Numbered from the stretch's first letter, positions 22,048 to 49,620 are shown. The stretch: 64,000 nt of DNA from Candidatus Chazhemtobacterium aquaticus (GCF_009936135.1 NZ_CP047901.1:216984-280983); one strand, 5' to 3'. The notes: a model not told the origin generated them from the sequence alone. Made by a program: numbers and translations.

Positions 22048-22980
22048 TTAAGCTACATAAAGAAGTCCTAACACCATCACCCCCCACAACACCACTGTTA
22101 TGATCAGCGGCTTATCAGACAACAGTATTCTCTCCGGGCTTTCACCCTCGTTCTTCTCGTAAATCAACTGCATGTATCGCATCACACCATATACTACCAA
22201 CGGGATTGTTGCCATAAGCCACTTTTCAGATAAAAAAGTTTTTGGTAACAGTGACAGAAAGGTTAAAACCTTACCCTCAAACTCAATTCTTGGCTGATTA
22301 AAAGTAAACAAGGCGTACGACAACCACGAAGCCGTAGCAAACATCGCCGTATAAATATTCAACAGCTCCTCAGTGTATCGTTTCAAAGTCTCCCTGACAG
22401 CTGCAGTGTTTCCGCTTCCACGAAGTAAAGTCATCTCGCTTTTTCTTTTGCCCACAGCCAAAAACAATGAAAGTGAAATCACAGTCAACAAAAACCACAC
22501 ATTCATATGAGCGTCAATGACCACCGCTCCCGCATACACCCTCAAAATATATCCTGTTGCAATCGTAATCACATCCAAAATCGGGATATTTTTCAGCCAA
22601 TAAGTGTACAACAAGCCTGAAACGACTAAATAGGTCAAACATATACCAAAGAAAAACATATTCATGGCATATGCCCAGGCCAAGCCAATTATCACACCAG
22701 CCAACATCGCAAATACTGCTAAAGACACCGGTAACTCACCAGACGCCAAAGGACGTTTTCTTTTAAACGGGTGTTTACGATCAGCCTCTATGTCCAACAA
22801 ATCATTGAAAATATAAACACTCGCACTTATCAAGGTAAATACCACTATTGCCTCCACCACCTTCTCCAACCTGCCTGGCACTAACAACAGACCGCTGAAA
22901 ACCACTGGCGCCAACAACGCCGCATTCTTTATCCACTGTCTCGGTCTCGCCGTCCTAAATAACGCCCATAAGATACCCAT
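22048..22980 (-). CDS. UbiA-family prenyltransferase resembling decaprenyl-phosphate phosphoribosyltransferase (DPPR synthase)
   Basis: RPRQWIKN and NDLLDIEADRKHPFKRKRPLASGE (the Asp-rich UbiA motif in the DPPR-synthase arrangement) are present, with about 8 TM helices. Confidence 0.65.
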   Translation of the reverse strand: MGILWALFRTARPRQWIKNAALLAPVVFSGLLLVPGRLEKVVEAIVVFTLISASVYIFNDLLDIEADRKHPFKRKRPLASGELPVSLAVFAMLAGVIIGLAWAYAMNMFFFGICLTYLVVSGLLYTYWLKNIPILDVITIATGYILRVYAGAVVIDAHMNVWFLLTVISLSLFLAVGKRKSEMTLLRGSGNTAAVRETLKRYTEELLNIYTAMFATASWLSYALFTFNQPRIEFEGKVLTFLSLLPKTFLSEKWLMATIPLVVYGVMRYMQLIYEKNEGESPERILLSDKPLIITVVLWGVMVLGLLYVA

Positions 22981-24008
22981 AACAAAAAGGCTCCTAATAA
23001 TAAACTTACTAACACCATTGTATAAAATTTTTGTCTACTGTCTAATCTTAAAGCCATAAACCCCAACACCGCTGTCACCAACCAATAAAACACGGCCACC
23101 TTTCTCTTTCCCCAACCCAAATCCATCAACTTATGGTGCAAGTGACCCCGATCCCCCCACACTGGAGATTTACCTTGAAATATCCTTCTAATTCCAATAT
23201 AGACAGCGTCTATTAACGGTATTCCTAACACTACCAAGGCGGTTCCAATCTTTGTCGTCGATAGTATTGCCAACGTAGCTAGCATGAATCCTGCAAAACT
23301 ACCCCCTCCATATCCTGGCATACTTTTCTGCGGGTAGAAATTAAACGGCAAATAGCCTGCATAAGAACCCGCCAGAGCAAAAGCCAACACGGCCACCGGC
23401 CATTGAGCCACGTCAGCACTATATCTAAAACTCAACACCCCAATTACCACTCCGGCAACCACCACAATTCCTGGCAACTGTCCGTCAAGACCCTTGCTCC
23501 AGTTGACTGCATTCATCACAAACGGTATCCAAAGCAATGCTAGCAAGTCTGCCAAAACCAGCACTTGCCTCTCTCCTCCCCACGAAATTCCCTTATCTAG
23601 CATAATCACACCACCACCCAAAGGGTTAGTTATATAAGAAATTCCAATTCCAGCGCCTACTACCATCAAGGCTGCCAATAAATTGGTGACCAGTCTTAAA
23701 TATGGACTCAAGTCATAAATATCATCCAAAACACCCACTATCATCACAAGAGCTCCTACCAACATTATGGCCAGTAAATGTTTATCAATAGGCAGTAAGA
23801 CAACTACTGTCAACAACGTCCCCAACACTACCGAAATCCCCCCACCTTTTGGTACTGGCTCCTTGTGAGTGTGTGCTGGATGCTTTGTCCGATTAGGATC
23901 AACCACCCACCCAAATTTCTTATAGACCCTAATCACTACTGGCGTTATCACTCCAGCTATGACTGCAGCTATCAAAAAAGGAAAAATAGTTAAATTCCAG
24001 CTATTCAT
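22929..24008 (-). CDS. Glycosyltransferase family 4 polyprenyl-phosphate sugar-1-phosphate transferase (WecA/MraY-like)
   Basis: Carries the LGVLDDIYDLSP and NAVNWSKGLDGQLPGIVVV (NAxNxxDGxDGL) motifs and is polytopic. Confidence 0.8.
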   Translation of the reverse strand: MNSWNLTIFPFLIAAVIAGVITPVVIRVYKKFGWVVDPNRTKHPAHTHKEPVPKGGGISVVLGTLLTVVVLLPIDKHLLAIMLVGALVMIVGVLDDIYDLSPYLRLVTNLLAALMVVGAGIGISYITNPLGGGVIMLDKGISWGGERQVLVLADLLALLWIPFVMNAVNWSKGLDGQLPGIVVVAGVVIGVLSFRYSADVAQWPVAVLAFALAGSYAGYLPFNFYPQKSMPGYGGGSFAGFMLATLAILSTTKIGTALVVLGIPLIDAVYIGIRRIFQGKSPVWGDRGHLHHKLMDLGWGKRKVAVFYWLVTAVLGFMALRLDSRQKFYTMVLVSLLLGAFLLWVSYGRYLGRRDRDSG

Positions 24009-24370: not shown

Positions 24371-25945
24371 TCAATCACTCGCTTCCCAACGTCGCCACAC
24401 CACTGCCCCGCCATCTTCCATTACCTGCAGGTAGTATGCCGATAGATATGCATCAAGCTCTCTATCAACCAGCTCACCCTCTATGGTCACAATGTATTTT
24501 GGTCCCTCTTTAGTCAGGGCAGCCATTGTTTCACTCATACCATCAAAATCCCTAATGTGATAATTCACCGTATATCTACCAACTGGCAATCTATCACTTA
24601 AAACATATATCGCCGGTTCGGTCCCCCACACAAAAATCTTAGCGTCCTGATCGGTTCTTTGTCTAATATACTCAGCTACCCTCATATTTCGCACCACTCC
24701 ATTCCCAAAGAAATCATAAAAATCTTCTCTGGTTTTTTGGCCAGTAACATACATAACAAAATTGACATAATAATCAACACTCTTGTAATACCAGTACTCG
24801 TATCTCCATATGGCTACTCCCACAGTCAGCGCCAAAACGAAAGCCACCCCTGCCTTTATCAATTTAAATCTATCAATTACTAGTCCTATCAACAAGCTGG
24901 CTGGTGCCACAATCTCAATTAGATAATGTGGATACGGCCGACCAGCTAAATTAGCTCCAAACAGACCCCCTACCAACCATAAACTAGCCAGTCCAAACTC
25001 TCTGCCCAACCTCTTTCTTAAACACCAAATAGCTATCAGCCAAACCAAGAGCACGACTCCTCTCTGAAACAACCCGTTTTCATAAAATGCCCCACTTCCC
25101 CCCTCCCAAGAAGATAAATAGCCAATATTTTGCCCCAAAGCAGAGCGCAAATACCTCTCACCAGCTCCTTCCGCTACATAATAAACAATACTTAACAACA
25201 CCGGAACCAGAAACCCTATTAACACGAGCCAAAGCCTTCTATCCACAATCCACTTAAACCACCCACGCCAATCACTCACTTGATAAACACTTAACCAAAA
25301 CAACACCCCGAACAAATCAAACAAAACCGGCACCTTAAACAAAAATCCTAAAGAAAACAAAACCCCAGCCATTATCCACTTTTTCCAAACTATGACTCTT
25401 TTATTACTCTCAACCCACATCAACAACACTCCCGCAGTCACTGGCATAATCATAAACACCTCACCATTGGCGATATTGCCCTCAGTTAACGGTATTGATG
25501 TAAAAACTCCAAATACACCCGTTACCAACACCATCAACCACCTACTCTTAATTAACTTTTCTGCCAGCTTCCATACCAACACCACATTCACCAAGTTCCA
25601 AGCCATCAAAATCAATCTAAACCACATCACACTCCCTGCCATTGCCGCTACTAAATACAATAAAGGCGGCTTATTATCATGAATATCTCGGTAAAAAACT
25701 AATCCCTTGCGCAAACCCTGACCTAAGGTTAAGTAAATGTCCTCGTCAGCATACCGGTTAGGCTCAAATAATCCTGGAATCCTCAAAACTGCCACCAGTA
25801 ACAAAATAAGAATCAGCCCTTCATTTTTCTCTATTCCAGTCTTAAGTTTTAACCACCAATCCCGAAATAACAATCTTTGCTTTCCCATATCTTCATCTAG
25901 TCTACTAAATCTTACACCAGCCCAAAAGCTCCAAAACCCTTTCAC
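24371..25945 (-). CDS. GT-C fold polytopic glycosyltransferase (ArnT/PMT/Emb-like, polyprenyl-phosphate-sugar dependent)
   Basis: About 12 TM helices. There is an early acidic ADEDIY loop motif and the general ArnT-like architecture. Confidence 0.55.
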   Translation of the reverse strand: MKGFWSFWAGVRFSRLDEDMGKQRLLFRDWWLKLKTGIEKNEGLILILLLVAVLRIPGLFEPNRYADEDIYLTLGQGLRKGLVFYRDIHDNKPPLLYLVAAMAGSVMWFRLILMAWNLVNVVLVWKLAEKLIKSRWLMVLVTGVFGVFTSIPLTEGNIANGEVFMIMPVTAGVLLMWVESNKRVIVWKKWIMAGVLFSLGFLFKVPVLFDLFGVLFWLSVYQVSDWRGWFKWIVDRRLWLVLIGFLVPVLLSIVYYVAEGAGERYLRSALGQNIGYLSSWEGGSGAFYENGLFQRGVVLLVWLIAIWCLRKRLGREFGLASLWLVGGLFGANLAGRPYPHYLIEIVAPASLLIGLVIDRFKLIKAGVAFVLALTVGVAIWRYEYWYYKSVDYYVNFVMYVTGQKTREDFYDFFGNGVVRNMRVAEYIRQRTDQDAKIFVWGTEPAIYVLSDRLPVGRYTVNYHIRDFDGMSETMAALTKEGPKYIVTIEGELVDRELDAYLSAYYLQVMEDGGAVVWRRWEASD

Positions 25946-25985: not shown

Positions 25986-27503
25986 TTATACCTTCTCGGT
26001 CACTCTATACTCTAAATATCTTCCCATCATTAGTCTTGTATGAGCCTCCAGACCGGGTAATGCCGTAAACAAAAGACCAACTACTGGTAATAACACAAAC
26101 TCAAACGGCGACAAAACCTTTCTCCATAAGGGCAAATCTTTCACTCCTGGCCTTGCTTTCATGTCAACAAACACTATCAATAGCAAACCAATCAACGATG
26201 CTGTCAGAATGGCACTCGCCACCTGCGGCAATGTCTTTCCCATTATCGTTCTTGCGAAATCTTCATTAAGCAGGGGTGGTAATGTGGCGCCAAGTGTAAT
26301 TGCAAACCAGTTTACTGGCCACAAGAAATGATCCTCTAATACCTTTAATACCCTTAAAGTCTTGTCCCAAAAATCTGCTCGCTGATCCATGATATACCCC
26401 TTTAAAAAATATGCATCATCACTTGCTCCCCACGCCCACCGCTTCACTTGTTGATAAGTGTTATTAAAGGTTTTTATAAACGAAGTTGACTCAGCCGCGT
26501 CGGCATATATGGGTAAAAAGATTGGCTCGACCTCCACCTCTCCTCCAGTGGCAAAATACGCCTTAAAAAACATTCGATAATCCTCCGGGATAACATCAGT
26601 ATCCCAATAACCCACCTCATCCATTAACTTCAGTGACAAGGTGTATGTCGAAAAATTTATTAATCTTTCAGGTCTCATCAACATTCCCATCTGGACAATT
26701 GAAGAGGCTCGATTAAACACCCTCATCAACCAAGGAATTTGTTCAATATTGTTGTAATAAAGAATTGCCCCTTGCCATACTCGCCTATAGCGATGAGGAG
26801 AATCTAGAAACTTATATGTCAAAGCTGCCATATGATTGGGGTGAAGCTGAACATCGGCGTCTGCTGAAGATATTGTCATGTAATCAATATCCCAGTCGTC
26901 TTTATGATTTTTCTTCCACACCCTTACAAACTCCTTAGCTCCCCATGCCGCGTTAGACGACTTACCTACTACCTCACCAGCAATACCAGGAGGATGAACT
27001 GCAAATATCAAATCATCAAACACCCCCTCAAACCGCTTCTTAAGGGCTTTCATTCTTGGCTCATTAATCTCCTCACCTGCACGTTCCTCAAAAGCTAACA
27101 CTGGAATTATTTGCTTTGCCGGAAAGGTCTGTTTAGCCAAAGCTTCCAAGTTCCTCTCTAATGTATGTAGTGGTTCTTTATAGTTAGGAATCACCACCAC
27201 ATGTCTAACCCTTTTCCAATCCTTAAAACCTCTTACATCCCCCATCCAATCATATTTTTCTGACGCCCTGATCCTGTAATAAGCCAACAACGACAATACT
27301 GCCATAGACACAGATCTATAAAACCAATACACATAGAACGCAATAATGTAATATGCCACCACCACGGGAATAAAAAACGAGCCCCACACCGGGAACAAAA
27401 TCAAGTTCCACGATACAAATCCGGGCAGTATTTCAAGTAGTCTTTGCGACAACCTCGGATATCTAATCAAAAACAATCGAAAAGGAATCAATACTCTGTT
27501 CAT
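25986..27503 (-). CDS. Membrane-integrated processive family-2 glycosyltransferase (QxxRW motif)
   Basis: VVIPNYKE, the DAD motif and QQVKRWAWG (Q-x-x-R-W) are present, with N- and C-terminal TM bundles. Confidence 0.65.
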   Translation of the reverse strand: MNRVLIPFRLFLIRYPRLSQRLLEILPGFVSWNLILFPVWGSFFIPVVVAYYIIAFYVYWFYRSVSMAVLSLLAYYRIRASEKYDWMGDVRGFKDWKRVRHVVVIPNYKEPLHTLERNLEALAKQTFPAKQIIPVLAFEERAGEEINEPRMKALKKRFEGVFDDLIFAVHPPGIAGEVVGKSSNAAWGAKEFVRVWKKNHKDDWDIDYMTISSADADVQLHPNHMAALTYKFLDSPHRYRRVWQGAILYYNNIEQIPWLMRVFNRASSIVQMGMLMRPERLINFSTYTLSLKLMDEVGYWDTDVIPEDYRMFFKAYFATGGEVEVEPIFLPIYADAAESTSFIKTFNNTYQQVKRWAWGASDDAYFLKGYIMDQRADFWDKTLRVLKVLEDHFLWPVNWFAITLGATLPPLLNEDFARTIMGKTLPQVASAILTASLIGLLLIVFVDMKARPGVKDLPLWRKVLSPFEFVLLPVVGLLFTALPGLEAHTRLMMGRYLEYRVTEKV

Positions 27504-36098: not shown

Positions 36099-36891
36099 CC
36101 CTCTCTCCGCCAAAATTCATCTTAAAACGGCTAAATCCTACCCAGCTTTTTCTTGGATTTCTAGAATCATCAATTCCCTCAAAGTCCCAAGATTTAACTC
36201 CTCTTTCCTTCATCCTCATCATTCCCTCCCACACTAGTTTTGCCTGAGCCCCAATTCTCCGCCCACTCTGTGAAGTCCAGGCATAATAATAGTAAGCTTT
36301 CTTTTCGCAAATCAATAACACTTCACCTGCTACAATCTTTTCTCGGTCACGTCCCACCACCATCACCATGTCTTTTCCAAAACTCTTCGCCATGTTTTCA
36401 AACGCTTGATATCTCGGTACATAACCTCTTCCAAATTGTTGCCACGACTTCCACGCTAACCAGCGTTTTTTAGCCTCCGTGATTTGTTCAACCTCCACCC
36501 TCGAAGCTTTCCTTATCACCCTTCTTGTATCTTTACTCACCCCTAACCAGATTTCTTTCTTACTTCGTCTCAGGTCTACCACAACGCTCGCCCCAGGAAG
36601 ATAACCGCTCTCTTTTCGTTCCATCTTTTCTCGAATGCAATAATCCTCGGCCTTATCATTAGCTGGCTCCCAAATCGAATAGATCACCCCATGCTTTCGC
36701 TTCAGTTGATTAAGACATCTACCCTCTGGCTCGTGCGCAAAACGTTGACACTTCATTATCGAAATCGGCAACATCGGTATTTTTTTTATCGCTACCTGCA
36801 CAAAGTTTCCTTTTTTGGTTTTCACCCTTTCTACCTTCCAGCCCTGACGTCGTAAAAACGCGCCATATTTCCTACACTGTCTTAAGTCCAT
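36064..36891 (-). CDS. FemAB-family aminoacyl-tRNA-dependent peptidoglycan peptidyltransferase-like protein (paralog 2)
   Basis: C-terminal similarity to its upstream paralog (AWTSQSGRRIGAQ...WDFEGIDD...GFSRFKMNFGGE). Confidence 0.55.
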   Translation of the reverse strand: MDLRQCRKYGAFLRRQGWKVERVKTKKGNFVQVAIKKIPMLPISIMKCQRFAHEPEGRCLNQLKRKHGVIYSIWEPANDKAEDYCIREKMERKESGYLPGASVVVDLRRSKKEIWLGVSKDTRRVIRKASRVEVEQITEAKKRWLAWKSWQQFGRGYVPRYQAFENMAKSFGKDMVMVVGRDREKIVAGEVLLICEKKAYYYYAWTSQSGRRIGAQAKLVWEGMMRMKERGVKSWDFEGIDDSRNPRKSWVGFSRFKMNFGGERVIYPLSYRQWF

Positions 36892-37898
36892 TATCTTTTC
36901 CTAGCCCTCAAATACACCCAACGCGCTTCATTCAAAGCCCGATACGGAGGGTAAAGCCACTTATCTATCACCAAATCATATGTTCCCACAAACTCAACCA
37001 GTTCAGCCCCAAACCCTAACTTAAAACGATGAAACCCATACCAGCTATCGCTAGGCTTTGGATTAGGTCCAGGTGATCCCCACATATCAAAAATCTTTGC
37101 CCCCTGGCTCTTTCCCCACTTAATCACTTCCCACATCATCGCGTCCGAAGGATAAACCTCACGGAACTCTCTTGTTGAAGCTCCGTAAGGGTAATAAATT
37201 ACTCCGTTTAATATAAACACCACCCAAGCTACTAATGTCTTGCCCTTATACTCCGCCCGAAACAACCTCGCCATACCACTCTTACTTAACGTCTCAAACA
37301 TCAGCCTGTGATACTCACGATTATGTGCATAAAATTTTTGTCTATTTGTTGTTTCCTCGGTTAGTTTCCAATACTGCTCAAACGACTCCTTTGAGTTATC
37401 CTCGACTACTTTTACCCCCCTCCTCTCGGCGTATCTCACATTGTATCTGGTCTTACTCTTCATCCCCGCCATGAGCTCCTCCTCTGTTTTAGTTAAATCA
37501 AGCCAAAAACTCCACCTTGTAAATAAAGGCCTTCCCCCATAAACAACATATTTTTCTCTCAACTCCTCAATCCTTGGCATTCCCTGACCTTTTAACACAT
37601 TCGGCTCCATTGTTACCAATATCCCACCCTTCTTTCTAACCTCCTTCTCTACCGCACTCACCATTTCTTCACTTGGTATTCCTCCTTTGGGCCAATAACC
37701 AACCTTCCAGGGCAAACGAGGTATCGGGTGCAGTGTTACCTGAGCAGTTTCCTCTAGATTGTCATCTCGATACCAACCCAATCGAATTACTTCCACACCA
37801 GTCTTCTCACGAAACTCACCCCACTCCCAACTTTGCAAGGGATGTGTTGCCAGTAAGTTAAACCTATCTTTATCAACCTCTTTTACCTCTTGAATCAT
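36891..37898 (-). CDS. FemAB-family (FemX-like) peptidoglycan interpeptide-bridge peptidyltransferase
   Basis: HPLQSWEWGEF, KSKTRYNVRYAERRG and C-terminal GFHRFKLGFG are present. Confidence 0.65.
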   Translation of the reverse strand: MIQEVKEVDKDRFNLLATHPLQSWEWGEFREKTGVEVIRLGWYRDDNLEETAQVTLHPIPRLPWKVGYWPKGGIPSEEMVSAVEKEVRKKGGILVTMEPNVLKGQGMPRIEELREKYVVYGGRPLFTRWSFWLDLTKTEEELMAGMKSKTRYNVRYAERRGVKVVEDNSKESFEQYWKLTEETTNRQKFYAHNREYHRLMFETLSKSGMARLFRAEYKGKTLVAWVVFILNGVIYYPYGASTREFREVYPSDAMMWEVIKWGKSQGAKIFDMWGSPGPNPKPSDSWYGFHRFKLGFGAELVEFVGTYDLVIDKWLYPPYRALNEARWVYLRARKR

Positions 37899-39874: not shown

Positions 39875-40540
39875 ATGCAATATTTCATCGCCAACTGGAA
39901 ACAAAACTTTAGCCTCAAAGAAGCTCAAGAATGGTTCTCTCGGTTCGCCCCACCCTCAACTAAAGACCAGATTATCGTTGCCACTTCACATATCCACCTT
40001 GGTTCAATCACCCCCTCACCTCAACTATCTCTAGCCGCTCAATTTGTTTCTCCATATGACAACGGGGCTCACACTGGGCAAATTGGGGCACAGCAACTCC
40101 GCGGCCTAGTTGATTATTGCTTAGTCGGTCATTCCGAAACCAGAAAAGACCTCCAAGAAACTGACCAACTGGTGGCTCAAAAGGTCAGACTTCTCCAAAA
40201 AGCTAACATTACCCCTATTGTTTGTCTAGATTTACCGTATCTCGAATCCCAAATTCGAGTGCTTCTACTTGAGCTTCTTGAAATCAAGAATTTAATTTTT
40301 GCCTATGAACCATTATCCGCTATCGGTACTGGCCAATCCGAGTCACCACAACGAGCCAATGAAATTGCCTTCAAAATAACTACCCTAGCCCACAATCGTT
40401 CTCTCCCCATACTCTATGGTGGTTCTGTCGACCCATTTAACGTGACAGATTATCTCTCCCAAGAGTATATCTCTGGAGTTTTGGTTGGCTCAGCCTCTCT
40501 TGATCCAGAAGAATTTGCTAAAATTATCAAGCCTAGCTAG
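39875..40540 (+). CDS. tpiA: Triose-phosphate isomerase
   Basis: ANWKQN, GHSETR, AYEPLSAIGTG and YGGSV are present. Confidence 0.8.
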   Translation: MQYFIANWKQNFSLKEAQEWFSRFAPPSTKDQIIVATSHIHLGSITPSPQLSLAAQFVSPYDNGAHTGQIGAQQLRGLVDYCLVGHSETRKDLQETDQLVAQKVRLLQKANITPIVCLDLPYLESQIRVLLLELLEIKNLIFAYEPLSAIGTGQSESPQRANEIAFKITTLAHNRSLPILYGGSVDPFNVTDYLSQEYISGVLVGSASLDPEEFAKIIKPS

Positions 40541-40569: not shown

Positions 40570-41655
40570 ATGTCTCGTTCTAATAACATCTTCTCTCGTC
40601 TGAAACGAAAACTGCCTCAACATTCATCAAAAATCAAACTCACACTTCTGCTTGCAGGACTAGGTCTGGGCATTTTTTTTCTCTACTCTCTTGTTGCCCC
40701 ACTAACCCACCTGGTCCAAACTCTTCTTAAGGGTCCCTCTGCTATTATCTCGTTTACTCAAGACGCATCCCAGAACCTCAAGACTACTCAAGGTCGTACC
40801 AATATTCTTCTTCTCGGTATGGGCGGAGAGGGTCACGAAGGTGCCCTTCTTACTGACTCAATCATTGTAATTTCCTACAACCACGACCAAAAAGCTGCCA
40901 CCCTTATTTCCCTGCCCCGAGATCTGTGGGTCGACTCTCTCAAAACGAAAATTAATGCTGTTTACTACTACGGTGAGCAAAAACAAGCCGGCGGCGGACT
41001 CATCTTAGCAAAATCTGCCGTCGCCGAAATCACCGATCTACCCATTCATTATGGATTTGCCATTAATTTTGATGGATTCAAGGAGGCTATTGATCTAGTT
41101 GGCGGAGTCGATGTTGATATCAAGAGAACCTTTGACGACTATCGTTATCCCATTCCTGGTATGGAGAATGCTTATCCTGAAGAGCTCCGTTATGAACATT
41201 TACACTTTGATGCCGGCCTAGCACATCTTGACGGAGAACTTGCCTTAAAATATGTTCGCTCTCGCCACGCTCAAGGAGAGGAGGGGACTGACTTCGCCAG
41301 AAGCCAAAGGCAACAACAGGTTCTCATTGCCTTCAAAGACAAGCTTATCTCAAGTAAAACCTTGCTTGATTTACCCAAAATCAATCAACTTCTTGGTCTT
41401 TATCAAGTCTACATCGATACCGATATTCTTGACACCGAGTACGCTTCCTTTGCCAAAATTGCCCTAAACCTCAAATCTGACAAGATCCGCTCAATAAGCC
41501 TTGCTACTGACGACTCCAAAACCGGCGAAATCGGCATCCTTGAGGTTCCTCAAGATAAGCAGCCTTACCAAAATCAATGGGTTCTCATCGCCAAAGACAA
41601 CAACTGGAATGCCCTAAAACTATACATTCAAAACCAACTCAATCAACAAGACTAA
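40570..41655 (+). CDS. LCP (LytR-CpsA-Psr) family cell-wall glycopolymer ligase
   Basis: One TM, then TNILLLGMGGEG...TDSIIVISYN...ISLPRDLWV, which is the LCP core. Confidence 0.8.
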   Translation: MSRSNNIFSRLKRKLPQHSSKIKLTLLLAGLGLGIFFLYSLVAPLTHLVQTLLKGPSAIISFTQDASQNLKTTQGRTNILLLGMGGEGHEGALLTDSIIVISYNHDQKAATLISLPRDLWVDSLKTKINAVYYYGEQKQAGGGLILAKSAVAEITDLPIHYGFAINFDGFKEAIDLVGGVDVDIKRTFDDYRYPIPGMENAYPEELRYEHLHFDAGLAHLDGELALKYVRSRHAQGEEGTDFARSQRQQQVLIAFKDKLISSKTLLDLPKINQLLGLYQVYIDTDILDTEYASFAKIALNLKSDKIRSISLATDDSKTGEIGILEVPQDKQPYQNQWVLIAKDNNWNALKLYIQNQLNQQD

Positions 41656-43652
41656 TAAATCGTCTCTCTCAAACCATCTCCTATCTCAACAATCGTCGTC
41701 CCTTCCTGCATATAAACTACTCTACCCAACTCTTTCAATCCATTCTCATCAAGACTTTCGTAAGCCTCTCGTTCTTTGGTCCCAACAAATACGTATCTCA
41801 CCCCATATCTCTCCAAAACCTCCCAAGCCGCCCTAGACCCAGGATCTTCATAAACAACCCTCACCTCCTCAGTTCTTTCTCCGGGAATATCAAATCCCCC
41901 GCGCCACAACCATTCATGAACCCTCCAACCTAATACTGTTGGTAGCCCTGTAAACGCCGACACTCTAGCGTTTTTAGTGTAACTTTCTCCTACTGCCTCC
42001 AATACCACCTCTCCACCCCTGGCATTGTTCCTCAGCCACAATATTCCCCCATAATCACCCGGTACCTCTTTTGCTAACCACTTCTCCCCATTTATGCCCC
42101 GATAACTCCCTGAACTTGAGTAATAGCCCAAGTACGCTTGGGGGGTATATGCCAAAAAACCACACAAACCCAATATCACCAAGCTCCACATTACTATTCT
42201 CTGCCCAGTTGATCTGGTCAAACCTAACCCAACTCCAATCATGATCGACATCAACACAAACGACTGATACGTCAGCTTAAACATTGTATTTGCTCTAGGA
42301 TGAGACGGATAAATATCTTTCACGTATATCAACTCCGGTATAACCAGCAACATCCACGCCGTTATCACTCCTGCAACGACCAACCAGTTCTTCTGTCTGT
42401 TTTTAAACGACCACCATAATGCCAAACCACTTAAAACCAAATGTCCCAACCACAAAATCATAAAATCTCCCAACCTCGACCTTTCCTCTACTATTCTTGC
42501 GCCCTGACCAATCGAGTCAAACTCTATTAACCAAGGAGCCGCCACCGCCATTGTTACCACCAACCCCATCAAGCCTGTTAAGGCCAACTCTCCCAGCGTT
42601 ACTCTTCTAGATATCAACATCATCAAACCAAACATTACCGCCAGCAAGCCATACACCATTACATCCCATGTATTGGTCATCACCATCACCCCCATTACCA
42701 CACCCATTCCTATAGACCATACCGACCTTTTTTTCGCCTTTCCCCAACCTGCCAACATACTCACAAACAGTAATACTATTGGCAAATTCCACAGATGTGC
42801 ATGCAAATCACTTACCACAAAGCTATAGCTTGGAAACTCGTGAATCGTGTTTTCAATAAACCTGGTCGCATCGGCATACCAATAGCCCTCAAAACCCCCA
42901 TATCTAATCCAATACCAAGCAGCATGGCTATTCCCCCCAAATACGACCAACAAAGCTCCAATCACCCCCGCTACCAACACAGTTTTTTCTACCCCGCTTT
43001 TAGCCTTAACCTCGCCTCTTGCCCAGTATGCCAAATTAACCACCGCCGAAAACGCTCCCGACATTACCAATCCCATCAGCCATCCTAATAACAAGTTATA
43101 TCCCCAAGCAATCTCAACCCCCCACAACCTTATCATCACACTCCCCAAAAAATGACCAAAACTATAATAATTTATCGAATTCCCAGCCAGCCACATATCC
43201 CCAGTCGGGAGAGTCTCTGCCCTCAAGTAGCTGTTAATAAATCCCATATCCATAAACTTCTCCAGATCCAAGATGTCTGGGTTATAGCCTCGAACCAACA
43301 CCATAAAAACCAGTCCCGCCAAAAACAAAACCTCCTCCATCATTACCACCCGCCACCGTTTCCCCAACCACCCCAACACCTCTTTTCTACCCACCCAAAT
43401 CCATTTTGCGGCCAACAATAACCACAGCCACGACACTACTCCCACTCCTACCACACTATTAACCGGTAACTGCATATGGCCACCAAACCACACTGTCAAT
43501 CCAACAACCAACCAGCCCACCACCCTTCCCATCCCCCAACCACCATCTATCAGCTCATCCTTTGCCGCCCTCACCATTACCAGACCAGCGCTCAACTGCA
43601 TCACTAAGCCTATCAACCACACCACCATGATCAATACCAAATCATTCACCAT
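41652..43652 (-). CDS. Large polytopic membrane protein with a C-terminal soluble domain (GT-C-like / DUF2298-like)
   Basis: ORF of 666 aa with more than 12 TM helices and a C-terminal globular region of about 130 aa. No catalytic motif is assigned. Confidence 0.45.
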   Translation of the reverse strand: MVNDLVLIMVVWLIGLVMQLSAGLVMVRAAKDELIDGGWGMGRVVGWLVVGLTVWFGGHMQLPVNSVVGVGVVSWLWLLLAAKWIWVGRKEVLGWLGKRWRVVMMEEVLFLAGLVFMVLVRGYNPDILDLEKFMDMGFINSYLRAETLPTGDMWLAGNSINYYSFGHFLGSVMIRLWGVEIAWGYNLLLGWLMGLVMSGAFSAVVNLAYWARGEVKAKSGVEKTVLVAGVIGALLVVFGGNSHAAWYWIRYGGFEGYWYADATRFIENTIHEFPSYSFVVSDLHAHLWNLPIVLLFVSMLAGWGKAKKRSVWSIGMGVVMGVMVMTNTWDVMVYGLLAVMFGLMMLISRRVTLGELALTGLMGLVVTMAVAAPWLIEFDSIGQGARIVEERSRLGDFMILWLGHLVLSGLALWWSFKNRQKNWLVVAGVITAWMLLVIPELIYVKDIYPSHPRANTMFKLTYQSFVLMSIMIGVGLGLTRSTGQRIVMWSLVILGLCGFLAYTPQAYLGYYSSSGSYRGINGEKWLAKEVPGDYGGILWLRNNARGGEVVLEAVGESYTKNARVSAFTGLPTVLGWRVHEWLWRGGFDIPGERTEEVRVVYEDPGSRAAWEVLERYGVRYVFVGTKEREAYESLDENGLKELGRVVYMQEGTTIVEIGDGLRETIY

Positions 43653-43661
43653 AATTTAATC

Positions 43662-44930
43662 TTAAAGTTTTTCTCTCTGCTCATCCAACATTAACTGAGC
43701 CACTCTTGTTCCCAGATCTACTGCATAATTAGTACCTCTGTCCCACGGATAAACCATACTCATATTCGCCAACCATAAACCTTTTTTTCCACCGCTCATC
43801 CTTGGCAGGTTTCTAGAATAATTAACAGGAAAAACCGGTTGAGCAAACGGTGACTGGAACTTCCACATTCGCCTTACCCACCCTTTCTTAAATCGGGGAT
43901 TAACCTGCTTCAAATATGGCTCAAATAACCCTAACAACTCCCCCTCCGACATCGTAAGTCTCACATCATCCGCCGCCAAGTAATTGCCAACATAAACGAC
44001 TCGCTTGCCCCCATAATGTCTCTTGTCTACCAATCTAGTGTGTTCAACCACCACCAAAAAAGGCCAGTCCTTCTCCAAAATATTTAGCCAATAACAATCC
44101 ATCAAGCTTTCATCAAGTTCCATCACCAGTGTTTGGCCCCACAAATACCCGATTTTTTTTCTAGCTACCTTTTGCTCTAACAATTCCTCCGCCAAAGGCA
44201 TCGGCGCCGTTATCAACACCTGATCATATCTCTCTCCATTCACTCTCCAACTCTTTTCTTCACGCTTAACCTCCTTAATATTTGTCTGCATTCTAATTTG
44301 CCCACCTTTTTTCTCAACATACTCACCCATTTTCTCCGCCAATCTCTCAAAACCTTCATTAAAGTAACCCAGCTTCTTTGTTCGCTTGTACACCCTTGCC
44401 CAAAACCAGGCCAAATTAACTTGACCAACCTCCCTGCCAAACTTTGCCATAAGCATCGGCTTCCAGATTTTTTCATACCCCTCCCTGCCTACCAACAATG
44501 GTAGAGTTTTCACTACCAAGAACCTTTCAAATAACACTCCTAATCTCGGCCACATTACCAGCTTCAATACAACCAGGCCCATTGCCATCCGCAGTCTTCC
44601 CCAAACACTCAACTGGCCATATCTAAGCAACGCTAAAGGCGAGTCCAGCTCCTTCATCACCCCTTTTTTCCAGGTTTTCGTAACCGGGCTCAAGAAAAAA
44701 GCAGGCCAACCAACTTTCTTGGCCACTCGAATAATCTCCTTGTCATTAGTAAAAATATGGTGATAATACTTCTCTAGACTCCACTTCCACCCTTTCGGTT
44801 TAAAACCACCCGCCAAGCCCCCCAGTCTCTCCTCGGCCTCATAAACCTCTACTTCACAACCGTTACCCACCAACTCAATTGCTGCCGCCAAACCCGTAAA
44901 ACCACCACCAATGATTGCAACTTTCATCAC
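43662..44930 (-). CDS. FAD-dependent oxidoreductase resembling UDP-galactopyranose mutase (Glf-like)
   Basis: The Rossmann motif VAIIGGGFTGL...E.EERLGG is present. YHHIFTNDKEI resembles the UGM GAHIFHTNDK block, and C-terminal DRGTNYAVDLGTRVA resembles the UGM GRLAEYKYYDM region. It is longer than canonical Glf. Confidence 0.45.
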   Translation of the reverse strand: MMKVAIIGGGFTGLAAAIELVGNGCEVEVYEAEERLGGLAGGFKPKGWKWSLEKYYHHIFTNDKEIIRVAKKVGWPAFFLSPVTKTWKKGVMKELDSPLALLRYGQLSVWGRLRMAMGLVVLKLVMWPRLGVLFERFLVVKTLPLLVGREGYEKIWKPMLMAKFGREVGQVNLAWFWARVYKRTKKLGYFNEGFERLAEKMGEYVEKKGGQIRMQTNIKEVKREEKSWRVNGERYDQVLITAPMPLAEELLEQKVARKKIGYLWGQTLVMELDESLMDCYWLNILEKDWPFLVVVEHTRLVDKRHYGGKRVVYVGNYLAADDVRLTMSEGELLGLFEPYLKQVNPRFKKGWVRRMWKFQSPFAQPVFPVNYSRNLPRMSGGKKGLWLANMSMVYPWDRGTNYAVDLGTRVAQLMLDEQREKL

Positions 44931-45041: not shown

Positions 45042-46139
45042 TCACAGAGCCAGTAACACTCCCAACAATACCATAATCAAACCACCTCCAAATGCCGCCA
45101 GTGTTGGCAAGGATATCCCGGCTTCTGGTAGTTGAGCCTGAGTAACCGTTGTCGTTGGAGTCGCAGTAGGTGTCTTTGTTGATGTACCAGTTGGGGTGGC
45201 AGTCGCTGTTGGTGTGCTCGTACCTGTAGGAGTACTGGTCGGACATACACAATCAGTCTCAGGTGTACATGAAGGATTACGACACGATCCGCCAGAGCAA
45301 ATCAAACCCTCTACACAATCGCTGTTAACTGTACACGACTGGTTGCATGATGACTTAATCACTTCGCAAGTACAATCAGTCTCCGCACTACACTCAGGGT
45401 TGCGACACGCCCCCCCCACACATTCCAATCCATCAGAACAGTCAGTATTACTACTACAACCGTCATTGCATGACAACGGTTCATACTGATTCAACACCAC
45501 CAAAGTCACCACTGGATTTGTTACCGTCAAAGTAATCACTCCGTCCGAATACGCATTAGTCCCATATTTGGTCAAGTTAGATCCAGTCAATGAATTCCCG
45601 GGTAGCAAATAGTCGTAATATCTAGGCTCTACCCATCCAGTAGAAGGATTAATTACCTCCTTACTATATTCATAGTTACCAAATGCCAAGTTATTAAAAC
45701 TAACACACTCTGCATCCTTAAATCCGTCCTTGTCCAGCACATCAGTACCAAGGCTTAGTGGAGTGTCAAGGTCTGATCTTAATCCTCCACTCACAGTCAC
45801 TTCGTCAGAAGTTATCACCTCCAATTTGTTCGTCTCAGGCATTAATGAACCATCTACCACCTTGCCGGTCGGATCAATAATCACTGTACATATATTAATC
45901 GTTCCACTTGTCGGCCCATCTATAGTGAAAGTCGCATTACACGCTTCTCCTCCATACCACTCAGCTGCTCGCGGTCTACTCTCTGGAGCTGTTGGTGCCA
46001 CCGACTCCTCCGTCGTTGACAATCTAGTCACCACGATAATCGTCCCCAAACCCACACCCAAGATCAAAGCAATGATTCCGAGCAGTGTTAATGTTTTTTT
46101 CTGTTTAATTGTCATACTTCTACTTAAATACTTCTGCAT
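45042..46139 (-). CDS. Surface protein with an N-terminal signal anchor, a beta-rich domain, two Cys-rich about 36-aa repeats, a Thr/Pro linker and a C-terminal LPEAG + TM sorting-signal-like tail
   Basis: Repeats are C..GC...TDCSDGLECVGGACRNPEC..ETDCTC. The tail is LPEAGISLPTLAAFGGGLIMVLLGVLLAL. Confidence 0.5.
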   Translation of the reverse strand: MQKYLSRSMTIKQKKTLTLLGIIALILGVGLGTIIVVTRLSTTEESVAPTAPESRPRAAEWYGGEACNATFTIDGPTSGTINICTVIIDPTGKVVDGSLMPETNKLEVITSDEVTVSGGLRSDLDTPLSLGTDVLDKDGFKDAECVSFNNLAFGNYEYSKEVINPSTGWVEPRYYDYLLPGNSLTGSNLTKYGTNAYSDGVITLTVTNPVVTLVVLNQYEPLSCNDGCSSNTDCSDGLECVGGACRNPECSAETDCTCEVIKSSCNQSCTVNSDCVEGLICSGGSCRNPSCTPETDCVCPTSTPTGTSTPTATATPTGTSTKTPTATPTTTVTQAQLPEAGISLPTLAAFGGGLIMVLLGVLLAL

Positions 46140-47880
46140 TAACCGTATGCGATCCGGCAGTACTCACCTGATAATCCCAGTAAAAATTACCATTAAACTT
46201 CTCAGTAGTCTCAGTCCACTCTCCATTATTAATTCTAAACCTAGCCTTAGTAAATGTCCCATGAGCTCCACTCACAGTAAACCTAATCGTATCTCCAATC
46301 TCTACATTCTCCGCTATCTCATTCCAAGCAATCTCCACCCAACTCCTATTATCACCACTACTTTCAGGATCTAAAATCCACACCTTAACCAAAGCACACA
46401 TCGGCGTCGGGGTAGGCGTCTGCGTCCCTGTCGGAGTATTAGTCGCAGTTGGAGTCCTCGTAGCCGTCGGAGTTCTAGTTCCGGTTGGCGTCTGTGTTGG
46501 CTGAGAACCACAACTATTATTAATCACAGCAAAATCACCACAAAGCTGACCTTCCCTGCTCCCTCCCACACATACCTGATCCCACTGACCACAACCAGTC
46601 GCCCCAGCTCTTGAAACCGCCGCTGACCTATTTGTTCCATGAAATACTGGATTATTCAAACACTGTCCATTACTCAAGCTACTACATTGAAAACTGTAAT
46701 AGCCGGTACATGAACCACCAGGACACGAATCTCCCCCACCTGTCTGATTACACACCCTACTTCCCGCTACCCCAGTACAATACAGATTCTGACCCGAACA
46801 ACAAGGCCTTGATTCACAAGACTCTAACACTCCAGCACAAGACCCCCCACCACCAGTCGGAGTCGCCGTCGGAGTCCCTCCACCCCCACCACACAAACTC
46901 GCGCTAACCTCTCTTCTTCCGCACAATGTTGCAGAATTCTTGAAACACTGCAGACATAATCCACCGGTCGAAAAAATATGCCCATCAGGTTGACCGGCAC
47001 AACCACTCGCTGAACCTGAGCCACAAACAAAAGCCCCTGGAGTAGGAGTGCTTCCACCTCCACCCCCAGAACACGACCCACCTCCACTGGCAGGACCTCC
47101 ATGACTGGCACATGCCTCTTGTTTTCTTTGTTCACAAGTGGCTTGTGGGGCATTTTCGTCTCGGCCGTAGGACCAGCCATCATTACAACTACCAGCTTCA
47201 CAACAAATACCAGCCCTGGAACGAGTATCCTGAGACGTTGCTAAATCACTCACTCTTGAGCTAAAAAAGATCGCTCCTCCAGCTCCAATCGCTGCTACTG
47301 TCACCAGAGCCAATACCGCTACCACCAATCCCATCTTCGATTTACTTCTCCCTCTCTTTACATCACCCATGTCATCATTAGCCTTAAGATCACCCTTACT
47401 GTCATCTTCCTTTACTCCCAAGTCTCCACCTGCATCACCCGCCTCAGGTTCATCAAGATCCATCTCCGGCAAGCTATCTGCTATTGATGGCACTTCTTCT
47501 GCTCCTGGCAATGCTGAATCCGGCAATGGTGGTAATCCCGCTGTCGGGCCACCATTTAACCTCATCTTCTTCTCAGTCGTATCACCATTCTCATCTCCCC
47601 ATCCGTTATTTTCTCTCCCAATAGAATCGACTTCATCAGCTCCGATTCCACTTTTCACTTCCACCATTTCGTCTAGCACCTCCTGAGCCTTAGTAGACTC
47701 ATCCTCAACTTTTGTATCATCTACCTCATCTCCTCGAGACAAACTCGGTGCTTGGTCATCTACTTTCCTCTCTTTTTGGTTTCCGTTGTCATCAAAAGGC
47801 AAATCACCATATCTGACCTGATCATCAAGATTTTGATCATTTCCATTGCTCTGGTTTTGATTAGCAGGCTTATTATCCAT
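46120..47880 (-). CDS. Membrane-anchored secreted protein with an acidic disordered N-terminal region (about 190 aa), a Cys/Gly-rich region, a Thr/Pro linker and a C-terminal beta-sandwich-like domain
   Basis: The TM is MGLVVAVLALVTVAAIGAGGAIFF. There are many Cys pairs and GGGG runs, and a (TPTx)n linker. Confidence 0.45.
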   Translation of the reverse strand: MDNKPANQNQSNGNDQNLDDQVRYGDLPFDDNGNQKERKVDDQAPSLSRGDEVDDTKVEDESTKAQEVLDEMVEVKSGIGADEVDSIGRENNGWGDENGDTTEKKMRLNGGPTAGLPPLPDSALPGAEEVPSIADSLPEMDLDEPEAGDAGGDLGVKEDDSKGDLKANDDMGDVKRGRSKSKMGLVVAVLALVTVAAIGAGGAIFFSSRVSDLATSQDTRSRAGICCEAGSCNDGWSYGRDENAPQATCEQRKQEACASHGGPASGGGSCSGGGGGSTPTPGAFVCGSGSASGCAGQPDGHIFSTGGLCLQCFKNSATLCGRREVSASLCGGGGGTPTATPTGGGGSCAGVLESCESRPCCSGQNLYCTGVAGSRVCNQTGGGDSCPGGSCTGYYSFQCSSLSNGQCLNNPVFHGTNRSAAVSRAGATGCGQWDQVCVGGSREGQLCGDFAVINNSCGSQPTQTPTGTRTPTATRTPTATNTPTGTQTPTPTPMCALVKVWILDPESSGDNRSWVEIAWNEIAENVEIGDTIRFTVSGAHGTFTKARFRINNGEWTETTEKFNGNFYWDYQVSTAGSHTVNAEVFK

Positions 47881-47883: not shown

Positions 47884-49620
47884 TCAACTACTATACCTTT
47901 TTATTAGTCTATATTGCCATACCACGCCTCCCGCAAACAGACCTACTCCCATCATAAATATCGCCAGGGTCAAGGTCAACACACCAGATTCTGGTACTCC
48001 ACTCTCAGTAGAAGGCATTGTCGCTCTGCCTGAATCAGTTGCCGAACCTGTCGCTGTTGGTGTTGGAGTCAAACTCATTGTTGGAGTCAAGGTCGCTGAA
48101 GGTGTTGCCGAGAAGGCCGGTAACCCACCTTGTCCAGTCGTTGGTTCATCAGCCAGAACCACAAAGCTTCTTACAATTTTCTGCCACACTCCATTTTCAT
48201 CCTGATACTCAATTTCTAATGTATGCTCACCCGGCTCCAACCCCTCCGGAGGAGTCCAATCTATCTCCCCATCTTCTCCAATTGTCACCTCCTCCGTCTG
48301 AGGGTCAGAATGAACCGTAATCTTGATTTTCTGTCCAACAGGGCCGGCCACTTTAATTTCAGGCGTGCTGGTTGCCACATTTTCTCCTGGATCAATCTCT
48401 GTCACTAACTTTACTGACAAAGTTGCCTCATAAGCCTCATCAATCTCTGGATAACTACCTCCAATATCTCCAAAACCTGACCCCAACTCAGCTGCCTCTG
48501 TTGCCTCCTGAGTCTCTTCCACCATCTGTGCAATCACCACAATTTCCCCTTTCATCACCTCCAAATCTGGATTAACACTATCATAAAATGCATAAGTCCC
48601 TGCTTCATCAGGTGCACTAAAACTCCCCTCACTTCCTCCTCCAATCACCCCCGTATCAAACTCTCTTCCCACCGCTGTCACTGAGTGATTTTCCCCATCC
48701 TTGTTAATCACCATCACCAACGTACCTGCTACCACCGTCAACTGTCTTTGTACTAACGCCCCATCAACAATCTCCAATCTACTTTGCTGTAGCTCACCGC
48801 TACTCGTTGCTCCCTCTCCAACATCCTCCACCACCTCCAAGCTCTCACCCAACACAATATCAGGAACCGGACTATCGTTTCCTGTTGTTACCACTGCCGT
48901 CGCCGTGCCCAACTCAGCCGCCTGTACAAAAACATTTAACTGCGTAGTTTCTCGATCATAGGCTACATAACTACTTAAATCCTCCGTTCTTGTCAGTGAC
49001 AAAGGCAAAGTCCACACTCCTGAGTTTTTTGTTTGAGCTGATCTTAATACTCCTCCTTCTATCTCCACATAAACCACCGCTCCGGGTACTGGCTGCCCAT
49101 CGGCCATAACCACCTTCCCGCTAATTATGTCACTTTCTGGCGCACTCGCCGTTGGAGCAGTCCTTATTTTATACACCGCTTCATTCTCATCCTTGTATGT
49201 TTCCGAACCAGACCCGATTACAAAGTAGTAATCCGTATTAGCCATCAAACCTCTCACTGTAATGTAATGAGTTGTGTACAGTCCGACACTTCCAGACAAC
49301 TGATCTCTATCATCACTAATAGTCTTCTTCAGATCACTAGGAGACTCACCGTACTTAACAAACCCACTCACCTGAGTATCAGATATCCAAGACACCGTAA
49401 AACTTTCACTATCAACATTGCTAATCTCAACCTGTCTTGGCGTTGCCGTCGGCCCAGCCTTGGATACCAAACTAAAACTTCCCTGATTAGCGATCAGAAA
49501 CACTCCCACCAACATTCCCACTACTACCACTAAGACACCGCCTATAGCCAACAATCGTTTTTTATTTAGCCAATCTTTCATATTTATCGTTTCAACTTCA
49601 TCTCGTAAATACACCAACAA
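47884..49620 (-). CDS. Surface protein with an N-terminal TM, an FN3/purple-acid-phosphatase-N-like domain, a carboxypeptidase-regulatory-like domain and a C-terminal VPESG + TM + basic-tail sorting signal
   Basis: FTVSWISDTQVSGFVKYGESP...TDYYFVIGSG is FN3-like, and ISGKVVMADGQPVPGAVVYVE is CarboxypepD_reg-like. The tail is VPESGVLTLTLAIFMMGVGLFAGGVVWQYRLIKRYSS. Confidence 0.5.
   Translation of the reverse strand: MLVYLRDEVETINMKDWLNKKRLLAIGGVLVVVVGMLVGVFLIANQGSFSLVSKAGPTATPRQVEISNVDSESFTVSWISDTQVSGFVKYGESPSDLKKTISDDRDQLSGSVGLYTTHYITVRGLMANTDYYFVIGSGSETYKDENEAVYKIRTAPTASAPESDIISGKVVMADGQPVPGAVVYVEIEGGVLRSAQTKNSGVWTLPLSLTRTEDLSSYVAYDRETTQLNVFVQAAELGTATAVVTTGNDSPVPDIVLGESLEVVEDVGEGATSSGELQQSRLEIVDGALVQRQLTVVAGTLVMVINKDGENHSVTAVGREFDTGVIGGGSEGSFSAPDEAGTYAFYDSVNPDLEVMKGEIVVIAQMVEETQEATEAAELGSGFGDIGGSYPEIDEAYEATLSVKLVTEIDPGENVATSTPEIKVAGPVGQKIKITVHSDPQTEEVTIGEDGEIDWTPPEGLEPGEHTLEIEYQDENGVWQKIVRSFVVLADEPTTGQGGLPAFSATPSATLTPTMSLTPTPTATGSATDSGRATMPSTESGVPESGVLTLTLAIFMMGVGLFAGGVVWQYRLIKRYSS

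Follow-up and report, generated by a model that had tools for sequence, protein, structure and literature searches.

A two-gene module in the genome of Candidatus Chazhemtobacterium aquaticus may well serve extracytoplasmic glycosylation by tailoring and using a sugar donor linked to polyprenyl phosphate, in which the sugar is probably a pentofuranose. The module lies in a stretch of 64,000 nucleotides (GCF_009936135.1, NZ_CP047901.1:216984-280983; hereafter the window) and encodes a flavoenzyme of 422 aa (43662-44930, minus strand) and a 666-aa membrane protein of the DUF2298 family (41652-43652, minus strand), which is predicted to have the fold of the glycosyltransferase C (GT-C) superfamily. 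Next to nothing is known of the surface chemistry of bacteria of the candidate phyla radiation (CPR), to which a mediating part in their epibiotic lifestyle is ascribed. DUF2298 and NF005560, the family of the flavoenzyme, are both large and have no assigned function, and the module they form has so far gone undescribed; the reading given here, if true, would provide a concrete and testable role for a conserved component of the CPR envelope.

The module and its two proteins

An initial annotation of the window had proposed a cluster of three genes: a LytR-CpsA-Psr (LCP) ligase gene (40570-41655, plus strand; 361 aa by translation of the open reading frame (ORF)), the gene of the 666-aa membrane protein, and that of a flavoprotein resembling UDP-galactopyranose mutase (UGM, or Glf). 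All three ORFs are present at these positions. Since the flavoenzyme and the membrane protein have 2,684 and 2,340 homologues, respectively, in a database search at E <= 0.001 (clusters at 90% identity), and all three products score above curated profile cut-offs, the genes are real and not chance ORFs. The homologues bear names such as Woesebacteria, Collierbacteria, Microgenomates and Patescibacteria, which places the window in a CPR bacterium of the Microgenomates class. The LCP and membrane-protein genes do converge, their 3' ends overlapping by 4 nt, but the order first given for the other two has to be reversed: the flavoenzyme gene does not follow the membrane-protein gene but lies 5' of it, separated by 9 nt, and is transcribed first. 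Its true start is likely the ATG at 44927. Together, the two genes are the last of a minus-strand operon for surface proteins. A scan for promoters and terminators between 39.5 and 52.2 kb yielded nothing beyond shuffled expectation.

The membrane protein matches both PF10060 (DUF2298; E = 2.7e-84, 284.3 bits versus a cut-off of 27.8) and TIGR03662 (Chlor_Arch_YYY; 415 bits versus 300.25). Its YYYxG-type motif reads N161-Y-Y-S-F-G, with N, Y, Y and G invariant in an alignment of 57 sequences (A1), which also formed the basis of the AlphaFold (AF2) model and of the invariant residues named below. The model has a pLDDT of 93.9 and contains 14 membrane-length helices, in keeping with the more than 12 transmembrane (TM) helices counted originally. 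When the model was compared with the PDB using Foldseek, seven matches were obtained at E <= 0.001, all of them GT-C enzymes at a probability of 1.00, namely yeast STT3, mycobacterial AftA, DPY19 and AglB. The best TM-score (0.50-0.55) was that of the arabinosyltransferase AftA, and the weaker matches included the C-terminal domain of AglB.

A large acidic loop (residues 122-180) of the membrane protein carries the invariant residues E131, K132, D135, D152 and N161-Y162-Y163, the first three within the segment D129-L-E131-K-F-M-D135; E131, D135 and D152 are kept even in the distant DUF2298 protein of one related locus (L040). All invariant loop residues fall in the alternating long acidic loops or in the C-terminal domain (residues 500-666), which is predicted to be extracytoplasmic, and not one falls in the short loops rich in K and R. 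Because the positive-inside rule places these short loops in the cytoplasm, the catalytic face is predicted to be extracytoplasmic, as in GT-C enzymes. A caveat for the comparison with GT-C enzymes is that the acidic loop follows the fourth helix and not the first. The original description of this protein as GT-C-like, for which the lack of a DxD-type loop would have been a counterargument, is thus borne out: significant PDB matches of the model comprise GT-C folds only, and conserved acidic residues are found in a loop predicted to face outward. Known GT-C enzymes use polyprenyl-phosphate-linked donors, none of them UDP-linked. By analogy, and given a gene for a UbiA-family polyprenyl-phosphate phosphoribosyltransferase (PPPRS) elsewhere in the window, a polyprenyl-phosphate-linked sugar is also the predicted donor of the DUF2298 protein.

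The flavoenzyme is assigned to NF005560 (PRK07233, 'hypothetical protein'; 365.1 bits versus a cut-off of 252, residues 2-419) and gives a full-length match to Amino_oxidase of Pfam (PF01593; 63.5 bits versus 19.8, residues 11-414). No signal peptide was found, and the protein is probably cytoplasmic and membrane-peripheral. Its AF2 model (pLDDT 92.5) has the three-domain fold of protoporphyrinogen oxidase (PPOX) and phytoene desaturase, including a counterpart of the helical domain through which these enzymes bind membranes: the top 50 Foldseek matches in the PDB are PPOX, phytoene desaturase and monoamine oxidase structures (TM-scores 0.73-0.81), among them PPOX 3lov and 2ive (0.77-0.78) and phytoene desaturase 5mog (0.81). 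Unlike PPOX, phytoene desaturase or HpnE, which share the PF01593 match, the flavoenzyme is set in a context of glycan assembly and not of tetrapyrrole or carotenoid synthesis, and its equivalog scores are far below the cut-offs for PPOX (TIGR00562, 29.4 versus 97.85 bits), HpnE (TIGR03467, 70.9 versus 283) and CrtI (TIGR02734, 39.9 versus 238). The FAD_binding_4 domain of DprE1-type (VAO) flavoenzymes was not found in a Pfam scan.

The initial assignment of this protein as a UGM, which would supply UDP-galactofuranose (UDP-Galf), was drawn from the motifs GGGFTGL and YHHIFTNDKEI. Both are present, within IIGGGFTGL at residues 6-14 and YYHHIFTNDKEII at residues 55-67, and like Glf the flavoenzyme is an FAD (flavin adenine dinucleotide) protein of the broad superfamily with two dinucleotide-binding domains, has the GxGxxG and HIF..TNDK motifs and occurs in glycan clusters. 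In a profile search of PDB sequences, the K. pneumoniae and E. coli UGMs align to residues 2-67 only, with GGGFTG and YHHIF-TNDK opposite UGM residues 5-70 and the second His of HIFHT missing; this region can be aligned just as well with PPOX, L-amino-acid oxidase and phytoene desaturase. The resemblance thus reflects homology at the level of the superfamily and is confined to the N-terminal, FAD-binding part. When the flavoenzyme profile was aligned to E. coli Glf by hhalign, 258 columns were covered at 85% probability, with a one-residue gap in the HIF(H)TNDK block. This alignment places the invariant R179, F164 and Y189 opposite Glf R170, W156 and Y181, with low confidence in the stretch around R179 and over the region of substrate-binding residues generally. 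Glf R278, by contrast, stands opposite the invariant V293. We take R170 and R278 to be the two essential substrate-binding arginines of E. coli Glf, one of which would accordingly be replaced. The GLF profile (PF03275), with which the E. coli control scores 287.7 bits, does not match the flavoenzyme at E <= 0.01; UGM is missing from the top 50 folds, and no UGM model is among the 25 of 52 NCBIfam matches listed. With a full-length amine-oxidase match, other nearest folds and partners that point to lipid-linked donors, the flavoenzyme falls outside the UGM family, on the very grounds that the initial annotation had named as counting against its assignment, and a supply of UDP-Galf is consequently not indicated. 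A comparison of C-terminal motifs (QPVFPVNY with PYYPVN of UGM, and YPWDRG with YYDM) does not discriminate, since PPOX and CrtI have equivalents of these superfamily motifs. Among the invariant residues of the flavoenzyme family, aromatic and polar ones (W, Y, H, R, K, D, N) predominate, which would be more in keeping with a pocket for a sugar phosphate than with a tunnel that is hydrophobic throughout.

Conservation of the gene pair

Flavoenzyme loci were scanned in one genome per species; of the 80 obtained, 72 are patescibacterial and 8 belong to Chloroflexi. A polytopic protein (seven or more TM helices) is encoded directly 3' of the flavoenzyme gene (start between -200 and +150 nt from its end, mostly -26 to +12 nt) in 61 of the 66 patescibacterial loci with enough downstream sequence. 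This direct partner is a DUF2298 protein in 29 of the 61, and of 53 loci, 48 contain a DUF2298 gene at some position. The downstream polytopic partners that were checked belong to DUF2298 or to PMT_2, the latter in five loci (L034, L047, L079, L086 and L087), in two of which (L034 and L079) the flavoenzyme is paired with both PMT_2 and a family 2 glycosyltransferase (GT2). In L083, the flavoenzyme gene is preceded by a divergently oriented YfhO-type GT-C gene, with a PPPRS gene alongside, and Wzx flippase genes stand on both flanks in L036. Further neighbours of the flavoenzyme point to glycan assembly and include GT2, GT1 and methyltransferase genes as well as, in eight loci, an epimerase gene of the short-chain dehydrogenase/reductase (SDR) type.

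In Levybacteria-type loci, one to four genes (among them those for PMT_2-type GT-C proteins, an SDR epimerase and a methyltransferase) separate the flavoenzyme gene from DUF2298. The membrane proteins of about 545 aa encoded 3' of the flavoenzyme gene in these loci were considered as plain DUF2298 members, an assignment that was rejected when the hidden Markov model of alignment A1 missed them. According to hhalign, the set of 32 sequences, which included three non-membrane Chloroflexi proteins, shares only a C-terminal domain with DUF2298 (91% probability); of the 545-aa proteins, one gave a weak PF10060 match, one a sub-threshold PMT_2 match and one nothing.

A second, Gottesmanbacteria-type subfamily (L086-L088) has a different layout. 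Here, DUF2298 is encoded upstream of the flavoenzyme on the opposite strand, directly adjoining it in L086 and one or two genes off in L087 and L088, while PMT_2 occupies the 3' position in L086 and L087. The block adjoins rho, and LCP, triosephosphate isomerase (TIM) and surface-protein genes were not found in the three loci. Because flavoenzyme and DUF2298 are kept in this other layout, the pairing of the flavoenzyme with a GT-C protein survives rearrangement; the adjacency of LCP does not.

The LCP protein itself is a genuine member of the LytR-CpsA-Psr family of glycopolymer transferases, as first proposed: it exceeds the cut-offs of PF03816 (112.8 bits versus 24.6, profile positions 2-148 of 150) and TIGR00350 (91.2 bits versus 62.3) and has a single N-terminal TM anchor (residues 20-38). 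Its link to the module is weaker than had been implied. Where the main arrangement applies, 38 of 43 loci have a convergent LCP gene within 300 nt of DUF2298, but since it is convergent it is not co-transcribed with the module, and it is absent from the second arrangement. LCP is thus a conserved neighbour only, outside the core of the module.

In the Ardenticatenales, the flavoenzyme gene is preceded by a PF03706 flippase-like gene and followed by a UDP-glucose dehydrogenase gene. In an Ardenticatenaceae metagenome-assembled genome (MAG; L035, 10296-13049), an intein that includes a homing-endonuclease domain of the LAGLIDADG type splits the latter gene, whose product measures 917 aa.

Lipid-linked pentofuranose and the proposed role of the module

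The glycosyltransferase block at 22-29 kb of the window, which the initial annotation had connected with the cluster, bears on the module specifically through the PPPRS/DPPRS-type gene at 22048..22980 (minus strand). Its product scores 212.9 bits with the decaprenyl-phosphate phosphoribosyltransferase equivalog NF008978 (cut-off 207) and 228.3 bits, below the cut-off of 234, with NF008977; the only matches among PDB sequences are to DPPRS of the M. tuberculosis type (8j8j/8j8k, E = 1.5e-34). The predicted product of this enzyme would be polyprenyl-P-ribofuranose-5-P, the entry point of lipid-linked pentofuranose donors. Pentofuranoses are attached on the outer side of the membrane by systems composed of a PPPRS, a flippase and a GT-C enzyme, in which auxiliary epimerases act on the undecaprenyl-P-ribofuranose donor (Kelly et al. 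2024, PMC11127046).

Additional evidence came from a tblastn search of plasmids, in which Burkholderia, Rhizobium, Agrobacterium and a strain of the Rhodobacteraceae proved to encode homologues that span the flavoenzyme over its full length. These are 23-27% identical to the protein of the window and keep the family motifs (alignment of three of the four). On all four annotated plasmids, the gene is part of an operon with the order PPPRS-DprE1-DprE2-extended SDR-flavoenzyme-GtrA, located at 3500-9739 in Burkholderia stagnalis (L089), 3372-9562 in Rhizobium tumorigenes (L090), 3505-9672 in the Rhodobacteraceae strain (L091) and 3371-9553 in Agrobacterium salinitolerans (L093). Comparison with the PDB gave E = 1.4e-60 for the operon's DprE1 against known DprE1 and E = 2.5e-31 for DprE2; the PPPRS has an extra N-terminal region of about 185 aa, and the extended SDR has NDUFA9 as its best PDB sequence match. 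A homologue in Embleya (33% identity) is found in an unannotated record, in which the probe proteins matched no other flanking ORF.

In the mechanism proposed here, the PPPRS encoded 20 kb away would make the most likely donor, a polyprenyl-phospho-pentofuranose, which the flavoenzyme would tailor on the cytoplasmic face of the membrane before flipping. The flavoenzyme would serve as an auxiliary redox or isomerising enzyme, the candidate reactions being an oxidation that is coupled to an SDR and an isomerisation without net redox change. Its role would be comparable to that of DprE1/DprE2 or of the SDR epimerase in three-component pentofuranose systems and additional to them; it would be no substitute for DprE1/DprE2, since the enzymes co-occur in Proteobacteria. 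The DUF2298 protein would then transfer the sugar from the polyprenyl-phosphate-linked donor on the outer face. A wider generalisation is put forward with somewhat less assurance: NF005560 could constitute a class of polyprenyl-P-sugar tailoring enzymes extending from CPR bacteria to Proteobacteria (e.g., a 3-oxidase/epimerase partner or a redox-neutral isomerase acting on polyprenyl-P-pentofuranose), and DUF2298 a new GT-C family that, in CPR bacteria as well as in Chloroflexi and Archaea, draws on the tailored donor to glycosylate wall polymers or surface proteins rich in Thr and Pro. If true, this would fill a missing step in pentofuranose glycan pathways with the sixth gene of the PPPRS–DprE1–DprE2 operons and add a new GT-C family to CAZy. 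The proteobacterial homologues occur in cultivable Burkholderia, Rhizobium and Agrobacterium, which are genetically tractable.

Several observations weigh against a role in tailoring lipid-linked pentofuranose. Enzymes with the fold of the flavoenzyme usually oxidise C-N or C-C bonds and not sugar hydroxyls, and its best secondary profile matches are isoprenoid enzymes, with HpnE (70.9 bits) ahead of zeta-carotene desaturase and CrtI. In the window, 20 kb separate the PPPRS gene from the module, and a PPPRS gene is within 9 kb of the flavoenzyme gene in just one (L083) of about 87 CPR and Chloroflexi loci. No GtrA homologue was found in the window or in the CPR loci, MurJ (52026-53675) being the only nearby flippase; a MATE-type donor flippase and a phosphoribose phosphatase were not found near the module within the 64-kb window, nor were DprE1 and DprE2 found in the CPR loci. 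Thermoflexus homologues of the flavoenzyme have no glycan context. In an Ardenticatenales MAG (L055), a set of tetrapyrrole genes (1171-6820, minus strand; glutamyl-tRNA reductase, a CobB/CobQ-like amidotransferase, part of sirohaem synthase and TP_methylase) lies divergently upstream of the PF03706-flavoenzyme pair, although this adjacency, which the related L035 does not share, is probably coincidental. The linkage in Microgenomates could largely be inherited synteny, and the literature searched contained no functional study naming DUF2298 or NF005560 and no biochemical data.

Four other explanations were weighed against the tailoring of a lipid-linked sugar. The strongest of these, though still unlikely, is that the flavoenzyme acts on the isoprenoid tail, saturating, desaturating or hydrating polyprenyl phosphate to give a dedicated carrier, for example a dolichol-like one, that the GT-C protein would prefer. 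Phytoene desaturase 5mog has the best TM-score, secondary matches comprise HpnE, zeta-carotene desaturase, CrtI and CrtD, and hydroxyarchaeol of Methanosarcina is made by a phytoene-desaturase homologue, as cited in PMC10821996. Moreover, the GT-C partners come from several families and have the polyprenyl carrier as their common feature, and DUF2298 has a distribution of the Chloroflexi/Archaea type, going by the name of its NCBIfam model. Yet all other genes of the proteobacterial operons act on the sugar head group or on flipping, the polar and aromatic invariants with their basic cluster would be unlike the lining of a hydrophobic tunnel, and saturated polyprenols in CPR bacteria are without evidence. 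By contrast, a UGM or a close analogue acting on a nucleotide sugar, which would provide UDP-Galf for a galactofuranose-containing polymer extended by the GT-C protein and attached to peptidoglycan by LCP, is very improbable. Glf is the usual flavoenzyme of glycan-assembly clusters, and the N-terminal 67 residues and the hhalign match speak in its favour; the profile, fold and active-site comparisons described above do not, nor does the use by GT-C enzymes of donors that are lipid-linked and not UDP-linked.

A non-homologous substitute for DprE1, oxidising C2' of polyprenyl-P-ribose so that a reductase could complete polyprenyl-P-arabinofuranose for GT-C enzymes resembling arabinosyltransferases in a CPR arabinan pathway, was also considered. 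The window contains a PPPRS gene and no DprE1-type (FAD_binding_4) gene, AftA is the best PDB match of DUF2298 by TM-score, an SDR gene is present in eight clusters, and the order of FAD enzyme and GT-C gene recalls dprE1-dprE2-aftA of M. tuberculosis. This candidate was downgraded, and we now consider it improbable, as genuine DprE1 and DprE2 genes adjoin the family in all four proteobacterial operons, where the flavoenzyme must have another role; in addition, the SDR partner is missing from most CPR clusters, and the absence of DprE1 is drawn from 64 kb of genome and hence not established. A similarly low probability is assigned to adjacency without functional meaning, whereby gene order would be inherited within Microgenomates and the flavoenzyme would have an unrelated, PPOX-like or amine-oxidase, function. 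CPR genomes do have long syntenic blocks, and MurJ, the PilN-like gene, TIM, UvrD and FemAB are kept alongside the module; the Thermoflexus homologues and the tetrapyrrole genes of the one Ardenticatenales homologue also agree with this explanation. The link nevertheless outlasts rearrangement, in the divergent L086-L088 and across differing GT-C partner families, the family recurs in Proteobacteria in a wholly different operon for lipid-linked pentose, and the PPOX, HpnE and CrtI scores are far under their cut-offs.

Candidate acceptors, related systems and other features

If the module glycosylates an extracytoplasmic target as proposed, two kinds of acceptor can be suggested. Protein O-glycosylation on the Thr/Pro-rich stalks of surface proteins from the same operon is tentatively favoured because the operon encodes surface proteins with Thr/Pro-rich linkers that are kept upstream in relatives. 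The operon opens with PilN-like and PilO-like genes (50178-51441), after which three surface proteins are encoded on the minus strand. The first (47884..49620, 578 aa) comprises fn3/Pur_ac_phosph_N, CarboxypepD_reg, Cupredoxin_1 and Big_13 domains, a Thr/Pro-rich tail and a VPESG motif with a TM helix, and has homologues in 50 related loci. The next (46120..47880, 586 aa) consists of a Gly/Cys-rich region and a Thr/Pro-rich linker and gave no Pfam match. The last (45042..46139, 365 aa), a candidate acceptor, is anchored at its N-terminus and contains a Cys-rich repeat in two copies (C..C....DC..GL.C.GG.CRNP.C..ETDC.C), a Thr/Pro-rich linker and, at the C-terminus, LPEAG with a TM helix; its homologues are encoded directly 5' of the flavoenzyme gene in 29 loci. 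The LPEAG and VPESG ends of the 365- and 578-aa proteins, each with its TM helix, may be sortase-type sorting signals. Homologues of the surface proteins precede the flavoenzyme gene in most Microgenomates loci, often with overlapping start and stop codons.

A wall glycopolymer, ligated to peptidoglycan by the neighbouring LCP protein, is a possible but less probable acceptor; a route of this kind, like that of mycobacterial arabinogalactan, is conceivable since LCP, WecA-like and GT2 genes are all present. The WecA-like gene (22929..24008, minus strand) overlaps the PPPRS gene and encodes a polyprenyl-phosphate sugar-1-phosphate transferase of the Glycos_transf_4 (WecA/MraY) family (PF00953, 82.2 bits; TIGR02380 for WecA, 96 bits, below cut-off). 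In the same block are genes for a 524-aa protein with ten TM helices (24371..25945, minus strand) and for a synthase-like GT2 enzyme of 505 aa with four TM helices (25986..27503, minus strand; PF13632, 37.8 bits). The 524-aa protein has 'EPNRYADEDIY' after its first TM helix and a soluble C-terminal domain; it matched no Pfam or NCBIfam family and might be GT-C-like.

The module can be compared with three established systems. Like the three-component pentofuranose systems (GT136; Citrobacter youngae O1/O2; PMC11127046), the window has a UbiA-type PPPRS, a GT-C protein with catalytic loops predicted to face outward and clustered cytoplasmic enzymes, and the flavoenzyme has homologues in PPPRS operons with a GtrA-type flippase. 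Here, however, the auxiliary enzyme has an FAD/PPOX fold and is neither a GalE-like SDR (ORF13) nor DprE1/DprE2, the GT-C protein is DUF2298 and not GT136, the PPPRS gene is 20 kb off, and a donor flippase and a PRP phosphatase were not found beside the module. Moreover, O antigen is ruled out as the acceptor, since the host, a CPR bacterium, is monoderm.

The mycobacterial arabinogalactan pathway runs through WecA, DPPRS (Rv3806c), DprE1/DprE2, the GtrA-like Rv3789 and the GT-C enzymes AftA and Emb to ligation to peptidoglycan by Lcp1. A WecA-family gene, a DPPRS homologue, a GT-C protein and LCP are all encoded in the window, and both would follow the same logic, in which a GT-C enzyme transfers pentofuranose from a lipid-linked donor on the outer side of the membrane and LCP provides the attachment. 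In contrast to mycobacteria, DprE1/DprE2, Glf and GlfT are not seen here, the fold family of the FAD enzyme is unrelated, and the LCP gene is convergent and lost in the alternative arrangement.

In Pseudomonas aeruginosa, the GT-C enzyme TfpW, encoded beside pilA, O-arabinosylates pilin (bioRxiv 10.1101/2020.04.19.049825). This group IV pilin system (TfpW with the D-arabinofuranose genes PsPA7_6246-6249) resembles the present one in that a GT-C gene lies directly 3' of surface- or pilus-associated genes, the operon here starting with PilN-like genes, in its Ser/Thr-rich acceptor segments, and in having the pentofuranose genes unlinked, elsewhere in the genome. It differs in its GT-C family and in lacking the extra flavoenzyme; conversely, the window encodes large anchored surface proteins, with no type IV pilins and no TPR domains, and we only infer protein glycosylation here.

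The TIM gene (39875-40540, plus strand) lies 5' of the LCP gene in the same direction. Two tandem FemAB-family genes (36064-37898, minus strand) are located beside uvrD, an arrangement kept in 21 related loci, and this conservation suggests that the peptidoglycan of these CPR bacteria has an interpeptide bridge. An 838-aa protein (11156-13672, plus strand) combines a coupling-ATPase region of the TrwB/HerA/TraG type with a C-terminal S1 RNA-binding domain, an unusual fusion. The GC skew is extreme, and nearly uniformly negative across the whole window (1-64000; mostly -0.3 to -0.45, minimum -0.52) and largely independent of gene orientation. It leaves an imprint on the encoded proteins, those of the minus strand being rich in G, V, W and M and those of the plus strand in L, S, T, Q and P.

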